Origin: Dehalococcoidia bacterium
GTDB taxonomy: Bacteria; Chloroflexota; Dehalococcoidia; SM23-28-2
Direction of reading: 5' to 3'
NCBI GenBank assembly: GCA_034429995.1
Contig: DAOUEZ010000012.1
Coordinates: 15,464-79,463, forward strand
DNA: 64,000 nt
Numbering within the stretch: position 1 is the stretch's first letter; each line of letters starts with the position of its first letter. The notes under the pieces were generated by a model. The model was not told the origin of the DNA, did not search any database, and worked only from the letters and a program-made list of their open reading frames with translations. Positions 10,996 to 25,663 of this stretch are shown one piece after another. A program made the position numbers and the translations under genes.

Positions 10996-11817
10996 ATGCT
11001 GGAAGCCTTGCAACAATTTCGCCATCGCCGTTTTCGCCGCGATCTCTCTGCCTATCTGGACAACATGCTTTCCGAGCGGGCGCGCCGTCGCCTGGAGGTC
11101 CATCTCGATTCTTGCCAAGCTTGTCGTCAGGAGCTGGCAGAGCTTCGGGCCACCATCGAGGTCCTGGGTAGCCTGCCCATGGCCGAGGCGCCCCGCTCGT
11201 TCGCTCTGGCGGCCGCTCCCGCGGCGGAGGTGCGGCCGCGGCCAACGGCCAGGCGGCTGGAGTTCGGCCTGCGTCTGGCCACGGCAACCGCCGCTTTCGC
11301 CCTGGCCCTGGTGGTGATCGGCGACTTCGCTGGCCTGCCTGGGGATGGGGAGGAAGAGGAGGAGGAAATGCCGGCGATGCTTGCCCCGGCGGCCGCCGAG
11401 ACGCAAGGAGCGATGGAAGCAGCGCCTGCGGAGACGCCAGAGCCCTCGGTTCCTGGTATCACAGAGGCTGGCCCTCCTCCAGAAGAGACGCCGGCGGCGA
11501 TGGAAGCGGTGCCTGTCGAGACACCAGAGCCTTTGGTTCCCGGTATCACAGACGTGGGACGACCGGCACCGGCGGTCGGCGCGGACGTCTCAGAGGCCGA
11601 GGGTGTGGAGAAGGAGGCGGTGGAGAGGGCAGCGGTCGAAGAGGAAGCTGAGGCTGGCGCGGCGGAGGCCCAAGCGGTGGCTGTGGAGGAGGGCGGCGGC
11701 CTCTCGCGGGAGGAGGCCGTGCGCTGGCTGGAGATCGGCCTGGGCGCTGGCGTAGGCATTCTTGTGGTTCTTTGGGCTTTTGCCCGCCTTCGGAGAAGCA
11801 TCGGAAATCGAGCGTAG
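10996..11817 (+). CDS. Zinc-finger anti-sigma factor with repetitive acidic/Pro-rich region and C-terminal TM helix
   Basis: HLDSCQACRQEL zf-HC2 motif immediately downstream of ECF sigma; internal approx 90-bp coding duplication (ETPEPxVPGIT). Confidence 0.55.
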   Translation: MLEALQQFRHRRFRRDLSAYLDNMLSERARRRLEVHLDSCQACRQELAELRATIEVLGSLPMAEAPRSFALAAAPAAEVRPRPTARRLEFGLRLATATAAFALALVVIGDFAGLPGDGEEEEEEMPAMLAPAAAETQGAMEAAPAETPEPSVPGITEAGPPPEETPAAMEAVPVETPEPLVPGITDVGRPAPAVGADVSEAEGVEKEAVERAAVEEEAEAGAAEAQAVAVEEGGGLSREEAVRWLEIGLGAGVGILVVLWAFARLRRSIGNRA

Positions 11818-18501: not shown

Positions 18502-19209
18502 ATGCTCGATTCGATTCGCGCTGTTGCCTTCGACTGCTACGGCACCCTCGTCCGGTTCACCACTGCCGATCTCATCCGCACCATGGCTGAGATCGCCCGT
18601 GCCCAGGGCCTAGAGGCTGACCCTGAGGTTCTCTGGGACAAGTTCGTGGAGGCGGCCTTCGTCTTTCGGGGCGAGAACGTGGCCAGGCCTACCTATCGCC
18701 GCTACGATGAGGCCTGGGCTTTCCAGTTCGAGCGAGCAACACGGGACTTGGGCTTCGAGGGCGATGGCGCTCTGGCCGCCCTTCGCCTCAAAGAAAAGCT
18801 CTCCCAGGCCGAGGCCTATGCGGAGGTGGCCGAGGTGCTGGAAGCGCTGCGGGCCCGCTATCGGCTGGCCATCCTCTCCAACGCCGACGACGATTTCCTC
18901 CGCGCCTGCCTGGCCAGGAACGGCCTGGAGTTCGATGTCGTGGTCTCTTCGGAGGTGGCTGAGGCCCTTAAGCCGGACCCGGCCATCTTCGCTTATCTGG
19001 CTGAGGTATTGGACCTGGAGCGCCACCAGATCCTCTACGTTGGCGACAATCCCATGCCCGACATCGTGGGTGCCCGACAGGCGCAGGTTCCAGTGGCCTG
19101 GCTGAATCGCTCTGGCCGTCCCCTGCCTGAGGACATGGCCGAGCCTGACGTGGAGGTGGCTAGCCTGACGGAGCTGCTGACCATCCTCGTAGCCGGTGGG
19201 GGCGAGTGA
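18502..19209 (+). CDS. HAD-superfamily hydrolase (subfamily IA)
   Basis: Motif I AFDCYGTL, motif III/IV YVGDNPMPD. Confidence 0.75.
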   Translation: MLDSIRAVAFDCYGTLVRFTTADLIRTMAEIARAQGLEADPEVLWDKFVEAAFVFRGENVARPTYRRYDEAWAFQFERATRDLGFEGDGALAALRLKEKLSQAEAYAEVAEVLEALRARYRLAILSNADDDFLRACLARNGLEFDVVVSSEVAEALKPDPAIFAYLAEVLDLERHQILYVGDNPMPDIVGARQAQVPVAWLNRSGRPLPEDMAEPDVEVASLTELLTILVAGGGE

Positions 19210-19313
19210 AGGTGATCGTTGCCAGCCTCGTGATTCGTTCGGGGCTCGCCCTGCTGGCGGACCGCTGGTCGCTGCGGTGGCGGTGTTCGTGATCCCTGTG
19301 GAGGGGAATGTCT

Positions 19314-19742
19314 ATGGTGACGTTGTTTCCTGACCCTGGGGTGCTGCCTACCCTTCCTCCGCCAAACCCTGGGGAAAGGATACTAATCAGCGTCGAGGGT
19401 GAGCCCCCCCGTAAAGATGTGTCCTTTTCGATACGCAATCCGAAACATCCCAGATACGAGACCTTCCTGAGATTGCGGCAGGAAGCCACAAGGGTCATGA
19501 ATTGCAGGAAGTGGTATGACGGCCCGGTCAGGTTGGTCTTCACCTACTATTCGGAGAGGCTTGAGAGAAGCCTGATTGACTATGTTGGCGGTATTATGGA
19601 CACGCTCGATGGGAGTCACGGACTCACCTTCACCTATCTGCCGATAGTTTTCCAGGATGACTGTCAAGTTTGCGACGCCGAGTCCAGATTCGTACAAGCT
19701 TGCCAGACAACTTATACCGTCGAAGTCATGTCTCTCGAGTAG
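19314..19742 (+). CDS. Possible RusA-family Holliday junction resolvase (low-GC gene)
   Basis: ILISVEGEPPRKD resembles RusA N-terminal phi-x-G-x-P-P-x-K; C-terminal VFQDDCQVCD matches the RusA DDxQV catalytic motif; local GC visibly lower than flanks. Confidence 0.4.
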   Translation: MVTLFPDPGVLPTLPPPNPGERILISVEGEPPRKDVSFSIRNPKHPRYETFLRLRQEATRVMNCRKWYDGPVRLVFTYYSERLERSLIDYVGGIMDTLDGSHGLTFTYLPIVFQDDCQVCDAESRFVQACQTTYTVEVMSLE

Positions 19743-19976
19743 AGGGAACGGCGGCTAAGGGCGAGTCGAGCTTAGAAGACATGCGACCGCAGCCTGAAGG
19801 CTGCGGCATCGGTATGGATTGATGCCATACCCTTCAGGGTGTGGTGCTGAGCCCACAAGAGCGTGAGCGGCGAAAACGCTGTCTTGGGCCAAACTCCTCT
19901 TGTGGCCCTGGCGCCGCCGGTGTATACTTCTGTCTAACCGTATATTCACCTGACTACACGACGATAGGTGGTTGTC

Positions 19977-21110
19977 ATGAATATTTCTTGTCTGCAAGAG
20001 AATCTCTCCAAGGGCCTGTCCATTGTTGGTCGAGCGGTGGCCGTTCGCAGCACACTGCCTCAGACCTCCCATGTCTTCATCGCCACCGACAATGGCCGCC
20101 TCAAGTTAGCGGCCACCAATCTGGAGATTGCTATCACCTCCTGGATTGGCGCCAAGGTAGAGGAGGAGGGGGCGATTACCGTGCCTGCCCGCCTCCTGGG
20201 CGATTTTGTCAACTCCCTGCCCAACGAGCGCATCGAAATGAGCCTGGCGCCCAGGGCCAGGCAGTTGCGCATTGTCTGCGCCCGCAACGAGGCTGCCGTG
20301 GCTGGCATGGACGCCAGCGACTTTCCCCCCATCCCTGCCATCCGCGAAGGGGTCTCCCTCACTCTCGATCCCCTGAGCCTGCGCACCGGTATCAATCAGG
20401 TGGAGTTCGCCGCTGCCAGCGACGACACCCGGCCGGTGCTTACGGGTATTCATCTCCTCAGGGAGGAGCGTAACCTCACCCTGGCCGCTGCCGACGGTTT
20501 CCGCCTGGCCGTGCACACCCTCTCTCTGGAGCAGGAGGCGTCCGAGCGTACTGAGGTCATCATTCCTGCTCGGGCGATGCGAGAGGTCAACCGCCTGCTG
20601 GCCGATGAGGAAGAGCCCATCGAGATGACCATCAACAGCAGCCGCAGTCAGGTTCTGTTTCGCCTCAAGAACGTGGAGCTGGTGGCCCAGCTTATCCAGG
20701 GCACCTTCCCCAACTACAGCCAGCTAATCCCTCAGGCCCACACCTGCCGCGCTGTTGTCGATGTGGCCGAGTTCCTGCGGGAGACGCGCATCGCTGCGAT
20801 CTTCGCCCGCGACGGTAGCGGCATCATCCGCATCCAGGTCACGCCGGGGGAGGAGCTATCGCCAGGCAAGCTGGTCATCTCCGCCCGGGCCGAGGAGCTC
20901 GGTGATAACCGCGGCGAGATCGATGCCTCCGTGGAGGGCGAGGCGTCCAAGGTTGCCTTCAACAGCAGGTATCTCCAGGATGTGCTCCAGGTGCTGGATT
21001 GCAGCCAGGTGGCTCTGGAGACCTCCGGCCCCTCCAGCCCCGGCGTCCTGCGACCGGTGGGCCAGGACAACTACGTCCACGTGGTCATGCCCATGTTCGT
21101 TCAATGGTGA
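19977..21110 (+). CDS. dnaN: DNA polymerase III beta subunit (sliding clamp)
   Basis: MNISCLQENLSKGLSIVGRAV...LTGIHL...three-domain beta clamp architecture. Confidence 0.85.
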   Translation: MNISCLQENLSKGLSIVGRAVAVRSTLPQTSHVFIATDNGRLKLAATNLEIAITSWIGAKVEEEGAITVPARLLGDFVNSLPNERIEMSLAPRARQLRIVCARNEAAVAGMDASDFPPIPAIREGVSLTLDPLSLRTGINQVEFAAASDDTRPVLTGIHLLREERNLTLAAADGFRLAVHTLSLEQEASERTEVIIPARAMREVNRLLADEEEPIEMTINSSRSQVLFRLKNVELVAQLIQGTFPNYSQLIPQAHTCRAVVDVAEFLRETRIAAIFARDGSGIIRIQVTPGEELSPGKLVISARAEELGDNRGEIDASVEGEASKVAFNSRYLQDVLQVLDCSQVALETSGPSSPGVLRPVGQDNYVHVVMPMFVQW

Positions 21111-21189
21111 CGTAGAGCCGAGGGATTCCGTTCCGTTGGGAATTTCAGATTCCCGGCCACACAGTTACGTACTCCACGTGGGGCATTGA

Positions 21190-21966
21190 ATGCCGCGAGA
21201 GGTTGGCTCCTGGACCCAGGACAAACTCAAGATACTACGACAGTATTTGCCGGCTTACCTTGCTGCCACCACCAAAGCACGTGAACGGATCTACATCGAC
21301 GCCTTCGCCGGGCCGGGCTTGAACCGCCTTAGAGGAAGAAACCTCACCATTGACGGGTCACCGCTCATAGCCCTCGATGCCCGTGCCCGGAACGGGACGA
21401 AGTTCGATCGCCTCTTTTTCATCGAGCGTGACCGAGCAGTCGCGGCAGAACTTCGCGGCGTTCTGAAAACTCGCGACAAGACTCAACGGGCCAGCGTAAT
21501 TGACGGGGACGTCAACAAGGAACTGCCCAGACTGATCACCAAGCTTCATCGACGATCTCCCACATTCGTTTTTGTTGATCCAGAGGGAATCGAACCTCAA
21601 TGGACCACCATAGAGGCCATCGCTCCATGGCGAACTGAGCTGCTGATCAATTTCCCACTCGGGATGAGCATCAATCGAAACCCAGATAGTGCTAAGGTGA
21701 CTGCGTATTTTGGGACAGACCAGTGGCGGCAGGTATGGAACTCAACACGTCCGGGTAAGAGTCGCGCGGTGTTGCAACTGTACAAGGAGCGGCTGCGCAA
21801 GCTTGGGTACCAATATACCACCGAAGACGATCGCCTCATCAAAACAAGTGGACGCCGACGCCTTTACTACCTCGTCTTCGTCAGTAAGGTGCTTCCAGCC
21901 AAGAAAATCATGACTTGGGTGTTCGGGCAACCGGATTCGGTTGGTCAGACTCGCATGAACATCTGA
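21190..21966 (+). CDS. tcmP: Three-Cys-motif partner protein TcmP-like (methyltransferase-fold)
   Basis: 258 aa; IDAFAGPG SAM-binding-like motif; found immediately adjacent to a DUF5131 gene as in the described TcmP pairing; lower GC than surroundings. Confidence 0.55.
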   Translation: MPREVGSWTQDKLKILRQYLPAYLAATTKARERIYIDAFAGPGLNRLRGRNLTIDGSPLIALDARARNGTKFDRLFFIERDRAVAAELRGVLKTRDKTQRASVIDGDVNKELPRLITKLHRRSPTFVFVDPEGIEPQWTTIEAIAPWRTELLINFPLGMSINRNPDSAKVTAYFGTDQWRQVWNSTRPGKSRAVLQLYKERLRKLGYQYTTEDDRLIKTSGRRRLYYLVFVSKVLPAKKIMTWVFGQPDSVGQTRMNI

Positions 21967-21974
21967 GTTGGGGA

Positions 21975-22742
21975 CTACCCATAAACCATCGCTGAGACTT
22001 CTGCGGCTGGGAGACTCGGAGCCGGGAACTCGTTCCAAGTCTTGCCATCCAATATTCGTCCGGCGACCTTCTTGCCAAGTCGCTCGCCTGCTTCGTTGTG
22101 GGCTCCCCACTGTTTGAAGAAGAATGGCACGCGTGTTTGCTGACACTGTTGTCGTATCTCCCGCACCCAGTCTGCCTTCATGGGGCGGGCGTGCGGCCCG
22201 CTTTCCCCGCCGACAATCACCCAGTCGATGCCCTGCAGATCCAGGCGAAGAGGGCCCAACAGCGGCTCGCACGATAGAAAGTGCACCTTGGCGGGCACCT
22301 TCCGCAGGTCATCGATTCGACACGTCCACCGCTGATTCTCTACTGATACGCCCATCCAGACGTTGTCGGGCCAAGACAAGCGTGGCGCCAGCTGCACCAG
22401 TCGCTCTGATCGCTTCGTGAGTATCTGGAAGGTGTGCCAATCGGCCTCTGCCATGACGCTGAGCACCGACTCGATGAACTCGTCCGGGACATCCTCATGG
22501 AACAGATCGCTCATGGAGTTGACGAAGATCATGTGGGGCTGAGTCCACTTCAGGGGCTGCTCAAGTCGCTCCGGTCGGAGCTGGAGGTCAAAGCCGCGTT
22601 CGTACGGATGGCCGGGTACGCCTCGAAAGCGCTCCGCAAAGGTTTCAGCGTAGCAGTGAGCGCAGCCTGGGCTCACCTTTGAGCATCCGGTGACGGGATT
22701 CCACGTTGCCTCGGTCCACTCGATAGAGGAGCGCTGTGCCAT
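21975..22742 (-). CDS. Phage Gp37/Gp68 family (DUF5131) three-Cys-motif protein
   Basis: N-terminal IEWTEATWNPVTGCSKVSPGCAHCYAE (C-x6-C-x2-C) characteristic of PF07505; convergent with tcmP-like gene, 8-bp gap. Confidence 0.7.
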   Translation of the reverse strand: MAQRSSIEWTEATWNPVTGCSKVSPGCAHCYAETFAERFRGVPGHPYERGFDLQLRPERLEQPLKWTQPHMIFVNSMSDLFHEDVPDEFIESVLSVMAEADWHTFQILTKRSERLVQLAPRLSWPDNVWMGVSVENQRWTCRIDDLRKVPAKVHFLSCEPLLGPLRLDLQGIDWVIVGGESGPHARPMKADWVREIRQQCQQTRVPFFFKQWGAHNEAGERLGKKVAGRILDGKTWNEFPAPSLPAAEVSAMVYG

Positions 22743-22756
22743 TTCAACATCCTAGA

Positions 22757-22798
22757 GCTAGATGTGCTGCGGCCTCATCCTAACATCTAGCTTGTCGC
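22757..22798. promoter_or_regulatory. Perfect 10-bp inverted repeat (agctagatgt ... acatctagct) upstream of DUF5131 gene
   Basis: Direct reading; 22-bp spacer; located 15-55 bp upstream of the minus-strand start at 22742. Confidence 0.3.
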
Positions 22799-23025
22799 AG
22801 TGCATGTGCACTATGCCTTCGCCAAGTCCATGCTCAGTATCGAATATACACCGCTGGGCGCGGAAATGGGAGACCTTCTACGCCTTGGTTTGCCGTGCGT
22901 GCCCATGCTCGTTCGGCGGAGATGTAACAATAGCGGGCGGCGGTGAGTCTCTTCATAGGTGGGCAGGCTTAGTTTGCCCATGTGTTAGCTTGTCTTGTCT
23001 CCTTCTCAGCATAGGCAGGGGGGCT

Positions 23026-23724
23026 ATGAGAATACTAGCGGTAGATGACGAACCCGAGGTTATCGACGTAGTACGGCTTTGCTTCAATCTCCGCTGGCCG
23101 GAGGCAGAAGTGATCGCCGCCACTACCGGCCAGGAGGCGCTGGCCGCTATCGAAGGGCAAGCGCCTGACCTGGTGCTCCTGGACATCATGCTCCCCGATA
23201 TCGACGGTTTCCAGGTGTGTGAAGAGGTGCGGCGCTTCTCTGATGTTCCCATTATCATGCTCACCGCCCGCGATGCGGAGGTGGAGCGGGTGCGTGGGCT
23301 GGAGATGGGAGCCGACGATTACATTACTAAGCCCTTCAGCCACCTGGAACTGCTGGCGCGATCGCGGGCAGTTCTGCGTCGCTATCAGAACCAGCCGCCC
23401 GCCGTGGGCGAGGCGTTCGAGGCAGGCAACTTCCAGATGGACTACAGCACTCGCAGGGTGACGGTAGGGGACAAGCAGGTGAGGCTTACCCCCATCGAGT
23501 ACGGCCTCCTCTATCACCTGACCCGCAACGCCGGTCGGGTGCTGCCCCATCGCACTCTCCTGGCCAAGGTCTGGGGCCGGGAGTACACCGATGAATTGGA
23601 CTACCTGAAGGTTTACATCCGCCGCCTTCGCCACAAGCTGGGCGACGAGATGAGTGCCACTATCTCCATCGAAAGCGAGAGAGGGGTCGGCTACCGGCTG
23701 GTCCCCACCGATTCCCAATCGTAA
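23026..23724 (+). CDS. OmpR/PhoB-family two-component response regulator
   Basis: Receiver domain (LAVDDEP...DLVLLDIMLPDIDG...K) plus winged-helix trans_reg_C (VRLTPIEYGLLYHL...YLKVYIRRLRHKL); long ORF 22762 trimmed to ATG 23026. Confidence 0.8.
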   Translation: MRILAVDDEPEVIDVVRLCFNLRWPEAEVIAATTGQEALAAIEGQAPDLVLLDIMLPDIDGFQVCEEVRRFSDVPIIMLTARDAEVERVRGLEMGADDYITKPFSHLELLARSRAVLRRYQNQPPAVGEAFEAGNFQMDYSTRRVTVGDKQVRLTPIEYGLLYHLTRNAGRVLPHRTLLAKVWGREYTDELDYLKVYIRRLRHKLGDEMSATISIESERGVGYRLVPTDSQS

Positions 23725-24010
23725 CGTCACCTCCCTAGAGCAGTGAGCGGTCGCACGCTGGGCGCGCCCGTTGCACATTGTCAGGCGGCCACAGCCAGCC
23801 TTCACCCTCTTTTAACGCTCCCGTTCCTGTTTTTCACTGATCCCTAGGTTCGTTCCGGCGATAATAGCCGTAGCGGAAACGGAAGTTTGTGTGGCTTCCT
23901 GGGGAAACCGATTTGCTTGAGTGGCGAAAAGCCGTTATGGTTCGCGCCTCATTCGTTTACATAAGGATAACGCTGCAATGGGTGGCGTTCCTCTCTAGCG
24001 GGATAGGTGG

Positions 24011-25663
24011 GTGATGGACATGTGGCAAAAGGGTCGTTTCGGCAAAGGACTGCTTTTGTGGGCCTTGGCGCTCGTTGTGGTTGGCGGGCTGGCGGTGGCC
24101 GCTCTTGTCGCCAGCCAGGTTAGTTTCGCCAGCGGTTCTCAGAGTGCGCCTCAGTGTTGGACGCCCACGCCGACCCCAACGCCTCCGGCTCCGCCCTACC
24201 TCGTGACTGACAAGAATGCTGATCCTGGGAAGTGCGAAGAGGCGGAGATCGAGCTCATCGTGCGAGGTGAAGGCGATCCGGTGTACAAGCCCCTGGACGT
24301 GATGCTAGTCCTGGACGAGTCGGGGTCCATGGGGAAGCCGTCCGGCGACCCACCCATCGGGTATCTCAAGGACGCCGCCAAGAAACTGCTGCAGGAGCTG
24401 GATTCGAGCCAGGACCGAGTCGGCCTGGTGTCCTATTCGACCAACGCCCACCTCGGCCGGCAACTGACCCACAACTTCAGCCTGGTGGAGAGCGCTATTA
24501 ATGGTTTGAGCGCCGATGGCTACACCAACATCGGTGACGGCGTCTACGATGCTCAGAAGGAGCTGGACGACCACGGCCGTACCGATGCCATGCCGGTGAT
24601 GGTGGTGCTGAGCGACGGTGTCGCCAATCGTAGGCACGCAGCCGCCGGTTGCAGAAGCGTATGTCCCGCTTCTCACAACGACTGCACGGGGGACGCCATC
24701 AACCAGGCAGTGACGGCCAAGACCAAGGGCACAATCCTGTTCACGATCGGTCTGGGCTTCGAAGATCCTGACTTTGTGTGCCCCAGAGGGACCGACCTCG
24801 GCGCTGTGGTAGCGTTGGCCCGCGAAACGCTGCAGACCATGGCCTCCGGTACGGAGAATTACTTCGAGGCGCCGAAGCCTAGCGACCTTGAGGGCATCTT
24901 TGAAGACATCGCCGAGATCATCACCAACATCGCTGGTTACGACGTAACGGTCATCGAGATCCTGCCGTCCTACATGCACTACATCGCTAGCTCAGGGAGC
25001 CCGGCGCATACCACACACGATGCGGGGCCGCCGGAGACCGTGACGTGGGACTTGGGCAATGTGGCCATCGACGAAGAGTACCATATTACCTTCAGCGCGG
25101 AAGTGGACGTGGCGATGGCAGGTTCTTCCGTCCTGGCGGACGTATGGCCCGACACCCGAGTCGAGTATTTTGACTACCTGGACAGCCCGCACTCGGTGCC
25201 CTTCCCAAAGGCATGGGTAACTGTGGAGGCTTGCCCCACACCTACGCCTACACCTACACCTACGCCTACACCTACGCCTACGCCTACACCGACGCCCACA
25301 CCCACCCCGACGCCTACGCCTACGCCCACACCCACCCCGACGCCTACACCGACGCCTACACCGACACCCACGCCCACACCGACGCCCACCGCTACGCCCA
25401 CGCCTACACCAACGGCAACACCTACCCCAACGCCCTCGCCAACACCTGCTCCGACGGTCACGCCATCTGCTCTGCCGGAGGCCGAGACTCCCACGCCGAC
25501 CGTGCCGCCTGGCATGCCAGCGGCTCTGCCGGCAACCGGGGGCAGCGGCGCAACGCCGTTGACCACGGTTTGGCCCGCGCTGGCGCTCATGGCTGGTGCT
25601 ATGGCCTTGATGCTGGCGGGCACGGGGAGTGCGGTGTGGTCGCTGAGGCGGCGGAATAAGTAG
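24011..25663 (+). CDS. Cell-surface von Willebrand factor A domain protein with (TP)n linker and LPXTG sortase anchor
   Basis: Signal peptide; MIDAS motif [13 protein letters not shown]; about 70-residue PTPTPT linker; LPATGG + hydrophobic segment + RRRNK tail. Confidence 0.7.
25234..25445 (+). repeat. Coding tandem hexanucleotide-based (acgcct/acacct) repeat encoding (TP)n linker
   Basis: Direct reading; inside VWA surface protein ORF. Confidence 0.85.

Follow-up and report, generated by a model that had tools for sequence, protein, structure and literature searches.

On a stretch of 64,000 nucleotides from Dehalococcoidia bacterium (contig DAOUEZ010000012.1 of assembly GCA_034429995.1, positions 15,464 to 79,463; this whole stretch is called the window), a two-gene cassette was found between dnaN, the gene for the DNA polymerase III beta clamp, and a response regulator gene. 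One of the two genes, tcmP, encodes a three-Cys-motif partner protein, and the other encodes a protein of the DUF5131 or phage Gp37/Gp68 family:

21190..21966, + strand: tcmP (three-Cys-motif partner protein), 258 aa; short, PDC-M41A-type form, with a predicted RlmJ-like class I S-adenosylmethionine (SAM) methyltransferase fold
21975..22742, - strand: DUF5131 / phage Gp37-Gp68 family protein, 255 aa; predicted radical-SAM-type partial barrel with C20-x6-C27-x2-C30

The cassette had been pointed out in an earlier annotation made from the letters alone, called here the sequence-only reading. As described there, the two open reading frames (ORFs) are convergent, with a gap of 8 bp (21967-21974). 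The N-terminal three-cysteine motif reported for the DUF5131 protein was recovered as C20-x6-C27-x2-C30 (TGCSKVSPGCAHCYA; reads TGC20SKVSPGC27AHC30YA), with C20, C27 and C30 invariant in alignments of 29 and 118 homologous sequences, and the DAFAGPG motif noticed in the first gene is present as IDAFAGPG at residues 36-43 of TcmP. Both family assignments were upheld by hidden Markov model (HMM) searches, with scores far above cutoff. The DUF5131 protein matches PF07505 at E 3.2e-109 and 364.5 bits (gathering threshold 28.9) through residues 5-240, which correspond to profile positions 2-243 of 243, while TcmP matches TIGR04474 at E 2.4e-51 and 175.2 bits (curated cutoff 53).

The same two genes, being adjacent, match the PADLOC-DB v2 entry PDC-M41 (component A 2.4e-28, component B 3.5e-113) as well as PDC-M30 (component A 1.2e-08, component B 1e-109). 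By these profile scores, the pair is a full member of PF07505, of TIGR04474 and of the PADLOC candidates PDC-M41/PDC-M30. It had been singled out as the best candidate in the window for an undescribed system, a view that had to be given up because the two proteins are partner families of TIGRFAMs/NCBIfam and the pair is already held in PADLOC. Relative to the NCBIfam/TIGRFAMs partner families (TIGR04474 with PF07505), the window pair lies above the cutoffs, is adjacent and keeps the three-Cys motif; those definitions carry no function, and the instance described here is chromosomal, in Dehalococcoidia, at an insertion hotspot at the dnaN 3' end. Its composition is identical to that of PDC-M41 and PDC-M30, both of which are known as bioinformatic candidates only. 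For the window alone, the cassette adds a further example of a system already catalogued as a candidate, at a well-delimited insertion hotspot.

Neither protein matches a nuclease model, and no third protein-family match was found inside the 1.8-kb insert, in which the remaining ORFs of at least 60 aa, none of them scanned, all lie in overlap with these two genes. Promoter and terminator scans of 20900-23100 and an Rfam scan of 19000-24000 stayed at background level throughout. The DUF5131 protein is unusually conserved, with 59-70% identity between the window protein and homologues labelled Planctomycetota, Nitrospinaceae, Myxococcales, Gammaproteobacteria and Planktothrix; across the same host range the identity of TcmP drops to about 30%.

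Insertion at the 3' end of dnaN

The features that delimit the cassette are as follows:

19968..21110, + strand: dnaN (DNA polymerase III beta clamp), left flank and integration target, outside the cassette; TIGR00663 at 282 bits and three Pfam beta-clamp domains
21109..22915: the cassette, an insert of about 1.8 kb delimited by comparison with the empty site of the relative L012, with blastn homology ending at 21108 and restarting at 22916
21088..21114: left direct-repeat copy, the functional dnaN 3' end (TGCCCATGTTCGTTCAATGGTGACGTA)
22900..22926: right direct-repeat copy, a degenerate remnant of the dnaN 3' end (TGCCCATGCTCGTTCGGCGGAGATGTA)
23027..23724, + strand: OmpR/PhoB-type response regulator, right flank; Pfam Response_reg and Trans_reg_C, start inferred from the L007 orthologue MRILAVDDEPE

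The cassette was horizontally acquired, and the 3' end of dnaN is a recombination hotspot. The sequence-only reading had argued for horizontal acquisition from base composition, and its conclusion is borne out by the comparison with sister genomes, in which an empty site, alternative cargo and dnaN-tail repeats were found; this is stronger evidence than the content of guanine and cytosine (GC). In fact, the proposed contrast of about 50% GC in both genes against about 65% in the flanks was overstated. The tcmP gene, at 54.8% (z = -2.8), is a low outlier and indeed the lowest among the 58 long ORFs (mean 63.4 +/- 3.0%), but the DUF5131 gene, at 60.0% (z = -1.1), is no outlier, and the whole window stands at 62.9%.

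In close relatives, the gene order is MerR, HAD, dnaN, a variable slot and the response regulator. Eight close species-level relatives with dnaN at least 83% identical were assessed, L014 and L016 being checked for absence of the pair only. In three of the eight, the slot between dnaN and the response regulator contains a TcmP/DUF5131 pair; the other five lack it. The slot holds a short TcmP with DUF5131 in the window, L001 and L011, and a long TcmP (367-371 aa, with a C-terminal winged helix-turn-helix (wHTH) domain, PF22560) with DUF5131 in L007 and L015. It is empty in L012, contains a GGDEF gene in L010, and is occupied by 8.5 kb of mostly metabolic genes in L009. Among the assessable dnaN loci of Dehalococcoidia species representatives, the pair is present in 3 of 57; dnaN also has the pair beside it on at least 8 metagenome contigs and in L004, a less closely related genome (dnaN 67% identical).

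In the empty site of L012, about 35 bp separate the two blastn breakpoints and the response regulator gene follows dnaN directly. The two repeat copies of the window are 1812 bp apart and agree at 21 of 27 positions, and decayed similarity reaches about 30 nt further upstream of the right copy. A dnaN-tail remnant at the right boundary was also recognized in L007, L009, L010, L015 (near-perfect), L168 and L173, with repeat copies positioned at 1102 and 3246 in L015, at 6267 and 8005 in L168, and at 399, 2133 and 5721 in L173. The three copies of L173 bound two successive cassettes, of which one holds TcmP and DUF5131 and the next holds DUF1295, DUF2177 and NmrA-DUF2867 genes. With such remnants recurring across relatives with varied cargo, the 3' end of dnaN is a general hotspot for the accretion of cassettes. 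The dnaN tail was observed to behave like an attachment site that accumulates unrelated cargo. No recombinase was seen in any cassette of this hotspot, and a convincing dnaN-tail repeat was not found in L004. In L010, a 107-aa coiled-coil-like ORF directly after dnaN (11118-11441, - strand) was suspected to be a serine-recombinase remnant; it gave no significant Pfam match, and therefore no recombinase was assigned to the hotspot.

Of the two neighbours named in the sequence-only reading, dnaN was confirmed upstream, whereas recF was rejected as the downstream gene. The latter carries Response_reg and Trans_reg_C instead, and is the same response regulator gene that stands next to dnaN in the empty site. 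A six-frame scan of the window for the Walker-A pattern G-x-N-G-x-G-K-[TS], a weak test at motif level, gave one match, which is internal to its ORF and ABC-type-ATPase-like, not N-terminal as in RecF.

The partner type was exchanged at this one locus. L007 is a Dehalococcoidia metagenome-assembled genome whose dnaN is 97% identical to that of the window; its TcmP is of the long M30A type, with the wHTH domain matched at 5.8e-15, while the window has the short M41A type at the same site. The two sequences share 93% DNA identity from 22069 through the response regulator, and the identity breaks at about 22069, which indicates that tcmP and the last ~30 codons of the DUF5131 gene were exchanged as a block. 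The DUF5131 protein is 255 aa long with the short TcmP and 246 aa with the long one (breakpoint at 22069 in the window and 12437 in L007). The co-exchanged tail could reflect the recombination breakpoint alone or a contact of the tail with its partner. Mosaic identities to the window were found as well, with 82% for TcmP and 94% for DUF5131 in L001, and 88% and 86%, respectively, in L011.

Predicted folds, partner linkage and genomic contexts

The DUF5131 protein was modelled by AlphaFold2 from 118 homologues, with a predicted local distance difference test (pLDDT) of 87.8 and a predicted template modelling score (pTM) of 0.85. The model is a six-stranded beta/alpha partial barrel in which the cysteine loop sits after the first beta strand, and on this basis the protein is assigned, as a predicted structure, to the radical-SAM-type barrels. 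Spore photoproduct lyase (SPL) is its nearest solved fold by two fold-search methods, and viperin is farther by both. In an independent Foldseek search all of the top four entries are SPL; the likeness is remote, with a template modelling (TM) score of about 0.46 and 12-15% identity. This agrees with RadicalSAM.org, where DUF5131 is placed in Megacluster-5-2, beside SPL in 5-3 (PMC9477430). The sharing is limited to the fold. No SPL model occurs among the NCBIfam and Pfam matches of the DUF5131 protein, its family profile retrieved no PDB sequence at E <= 10, and PDB sequence searches with the single TcmP and DUF5131 proteins gave no meaningful match. In comparison with SPL, a radical SAM DNA repair enzyme (PDB 4fhc) that acts by itself, with no methyltransferase as partner, DUF5131 is shorter by about 85 residues, has C-x6-C-x2-C in place of the SPL-style C-x3-C-x2-C, and is paired here with TcmP.

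The structure of TcmP was predicted very confidently (pLDDT 93.6, pTM 0.92), and its nearest folds are RlmJ, which forms m6A2030 in 23S rRNA, and Trm1. TcmP matches no Pfam model, that of RlmJ included. RlmJ is nevertheless the best PDB sequence for a profile of 127 diverse TcmP sequences (E 0.006), and the two align by hhalign with a probability of 81.5% and E 1.1e-5. In this alignment YIDxFAGPG is paired with YLDTHAGAG and GSPLIA with GSPLIA, together with an acidic residue at the end of beta-2 and the D-P of motif IV; a helical insertion of 38 residues in RlmJ is missing from TcmP. Motif IV reads DPEG in TcmP (family consensus DPxG) in place of DPPY. K12 is the sole invariant residue of the family, and D37, G41, G43, G56, S57, N109 and D130 are nearly invariant, a pattern that fits an active SAM-binding enzyme. 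TcmP is accordingly modelled as a remote homologue of RlmJ-type SAM methyltransferases, with a predicted class I fold and SAM-binding motif I. RlmJ itself (PDB 6qe5; the Legionella RlmJ-family protein is 2oo3) is a solitary housekeeping rRNA enzyme, unlike the paired TcmP, which shares the class I fold and motif I but lacks DPPY, the helical subdomain and the Pfam RlmJ match. The pair would work like the SPL and RlmJ families and belongs to neither.

Linkage of TcmP was counted over 57 metagenomic loci with enough flank to be assessed, a closer TcmP alignment being used for this collection scan because the diverse one was too variable. DUF5131 adjoins TcmP in 49 of the 57, in convergent order as in the window or co-directionally with either gene first. 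At the remaining 8 loci, in which TcmP is bona fide (170-190 bits), the neighbour is a canonical radical SAM protein of 255-286 aa, which matches PF04055 at E 1e-10 to 1e-13 and gives a weak PF07505 signal. Its nearest NCBIfam models are PA0069, Rv2578c and 'radical SAM mobile pair protein B' (rSAM-mobile-pair-B), all below cutoff, and its GC-x3-C-x3-CYA aligns onto the GC-x6-C-x2-CYA of DUF5131. Hence a radical SAM neighbour is present at every assessable TcmP locus. The reverse does not hold, as TcmP adjoins DUF5131 in 40-43 of the best 80 viral DUF5131 loci, and among isolated phages DUF5131 was found in 176 records and a TcmP match, at tblastn sensitivity, in 8. As DUF5131, unlike TcmP at its assessable loci, is often alone, the asymmetry suggests that the radical enzyme performs the core step, with TcmP as a dependent second step or a targeting subunit.

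Some of the sister modules with a canonical radical SAM partner were found in restriction-modification surroundings. TcmP and the radical SAM protein follow directly after Type III Mod and Res in L210 (3606-9793), and after a type IIG/DrmMI-like methylase in L214 (4036-9799) and L237 (1021-7284); in all three they are the last two genes, with overlapping stop and start codons. These modules contain the same TcmP family in the same two-gene layout as the window, with aligned cysteine triads, but they sit in Type III or type IIG restriction-modification operons and the window cassette does not.

Other contexts were provided by plasmids and phages. On the Sinorhizobium meliloti plasmid pSymA (L248, NC_003037.1 1254220-1259881), DUF5131 is followed by a long M30A-type TcmP, which faces a short M41A-type TcmP, SMa2243. 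Immediately upstream of SMa2243 is hna (PADLOC PDC-S28), a defence gene with a validated role in abortive infection; according to the hna source paper, the two form a putative transcriptional unit. The PLSDB gene table has no features for this pSymA stretch, which leaves the DUF5131 ORF without a listed annotation. The tcmP gene of Gordonia phage BaxterFox (gene 42) belongs to the integrase-repressor lysogeny module, where it shares 4 bp with the end of the immunity repressor gene. The DUF5131 ORF of this phage is unannotated, full-length and 54% identical to the window protein (L167 5001-5729; NC_031226.1 32200-32928, + strand); it is convergent with tcmP, and the minus-strand 'hypothetical' genes 40 and 41 are called over it. 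DUF5131 was found on at least 588 IMG/VR stretches, in 176 isolated phage genomes and on 435 PLSDB plasmids, and TcmP comprises more than 3,000 clusters at 50% identity. The two genes thus form a tightly linked module that is widespread on phages, prophages, plasmids and genomic islands.

Proposed function and its alternatives

A model is tentatively proposed, which may well prove wrong, that the pair is a mobile two-enzyme DNA-modification module in phage-host conflict, with DUF5131 as the radical enzyme and TcmP as its SAM-dependent partner. DUF5131 would bind a [4Fe-4S] cluster through C20, C27 and C30, cleave SAM to a 5'-deoxyadenosyl radical and, like SPL, take hydrogen from a nucleobase (or sugar) in DNA. 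TcmP would then bind SAM and the flipped base and methylate or otherwise complete the product, while the winged-helix domain of the long TcmP forms might read DNA. The result would be a covalent DNA mark serving the mobile element, either by protecting the element's DNA against restriction or as the component with which a defence system marks self. As no recombinase is encoded in the cassette, its transfer may have relied on one acting in trans or on homologous exchange between the dnaN-tail repeats.

A sharper version is more doubtful. It holds that a radical SAM enzyme of the SPL clade acts with a partner derived from RlmJ to introduce a new modification of DNA bases, or that the radical enzyme attacks DNA without the partner's mark, that the partner is an exchangeable specificity subunit, and that the recombinase-less cassette targets the dnaN 3' end. 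The sequence-only reading had considered a role in nucleic-acid modification or against phages, which is plausible from context, and had called the biochemical function of the pair undefined. The literature agrees, as a search on DUF5131, TcmP, three-Cys-motif, Gp37Gp68, PDC-M41/PDC-M30, PF22560/GMT-wHTH and radical SAM anti-phage returned genome-annotation mentions only and no functional study.

Several findings weigh against a DNA-modification module. On the side of the radical enzyme, the window DUF5131 protein does not match PF04055 at E <= 0.01, its cysteine spacing is C-x6-C-x2-C against the canonical C-x3-C-x2-C, and the resemblance to SPL is remote, as given above. On the side of TcmP, the missing aromatic residue of DPPY means that it may not be an amino-methyltransferase, and its closest relative is an rRNA enzyme, which makes RNA a possible substrate. 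Roughly half of the DUF5131 genes in phages lack a nearby TcmP, and in 37 viral DUF5131 loci without TcmP, where a recurrent alternative partner was sought, the neighbours were heterogeneous and none recurred. PDC-M41 and PDC-M30 are candidates only. With no nuclease or effector in the cassette, the pair is not a complete restriction system by itself, nor a restriction-modification system. Other cassettes of the hotspot carry metabolic or membrane genes, and hence the location itself is no indicator of defence.

Defence by damage or abortive infection, in which the radical enzyme, upon infection, makes a viperin-like antiviral nucleotide analogue or turns its radical chemistry on phage DNA itself and TcmP senses or regulates, was considered unlikely. 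It would accord with the listing of the pair as defence candidates in PADLOC, with the abortive-infection gene hna adjoining the module on pSymA, and with the position beside the immunity repressor in a temperate Gordonia phage. However, DUF5131 is frequently alone in lytic-looking and temperate phages (176 against 8 with TcmP), which would be odd for a toxic effector, TcmP retains SAM-binding and catalytic residues that are enzyme-like and not sensor-like, and the DNA-acting SPL is nearer than viperin in both fold searches. RNA modification, with TcmP acting like RlmJ and DUF5131 like RlmN/Cfr on rRNA or tRNA and thereby altering translation or conferring resistance to a toxin or antibiotic, was judged improbable. 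The nearest folds of TcmP, RlmJ and Trm1, would be explained, and one prophage record does call its DUF5131 gene an 'RNA methyltransferase', yet TcmP lacks both the helical insertion of RlmJ and the DPPY aromatic residue, its long forms carry a wHTH domain, sister modules lie within operons for the restriction and modification of DNA, and the nearest radical SAM clade is the DNA-acting SPL/SplB-like one.

That last affinity raises DNA repair, in which DUF5131, with the assistance of TcmP, would reverse damage done to phage or cellular DNA by ultraviolet light or desiccation, spore photoproduct for example. The commonness of DUF5131 in phage genomes and its unusual conservation (59-70% identity across phyla) speak for such a role along with the SPL fold found by two methods, but it leaves unexplained an obligatory methyltransferase-like partner, the swapping of partner types, and the restriction-modification and Hna neighbourhoods, and was held to be very improbable. 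A native housekeeping pair, tied to dnaN and replication and conserved at its position in the lineage, is effectively refuted. The occurrence beside dnaN in L004 and in the metagenome contigs would fit it, but the presence/absence polymorphism rejects it: the pair occupies only 3 of the 57 assessable Dehalococcoidia dnaN loci, sister genomes show the empty site and other cargo, the insert is bounded by repeats, and the GC of tcmP is the lowest of the long ORFs in the window.

The preferred reading, a DNA-modification module, bears on one of the larger radical-SAM-like families without a known reaction. The problem has been narrowed to an SPL-like radical enzyme and an RlmJ-like SAM enzyme, with the partner swapped like a specificity subunit. 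If the product were a new DNA mark, a radical-chemistry branch would be added to bacterial and phage epigenetics. New here are the assignments at the level of the fold, the one-sided dependence between the partners, the sister modules in which a canonical radical SAM protein accompanies TcmP within restriction-modification operons, the exchange of the partner at a single locus, and the hotspot at the dnaN tail.

Neighbouring genes

A second, separate insertion of about 720 bp (19168-19885) lies between the HAD hydrolase gene and dnaN and is absent in 11 of 11 close relatives checked. It contains an ORF at 19308-19742 (+ strand, 144 aa) with 52% GC (z = -3.6) and no tblastn match in the fetched loci. 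This ORF had been called RusA-like in the sequence-only reading. It exists, but no RusA match was obtained in Pfam (E <= 10), NCBIfam, PHROGs or PADLOC, its sole HMM match being a weak NCBIfam TraF-like one (E 0.0024, far below cutoff), and a BLASTP comparison with an E. coli RusA sequence aligned only 21 residues at E 0.009. The phage-derived origin of the cassette that had been deduced from it consequently has no HMM support, and the ORF lies in its own insertion on the opposite side of dnaN.

Downstream, the response regulator gene is followed by that of a VWA protein and then by a putative histidine kinase gene, recognized by eye from its H-box SHELRTPLTS. The VWA-domain protein (24011-25663, + strand) contains a long run of Pro-Thr dipeptides, encoded by a repeat at about 25200-25480, with a strong local excursion of GC skew and AT skew.

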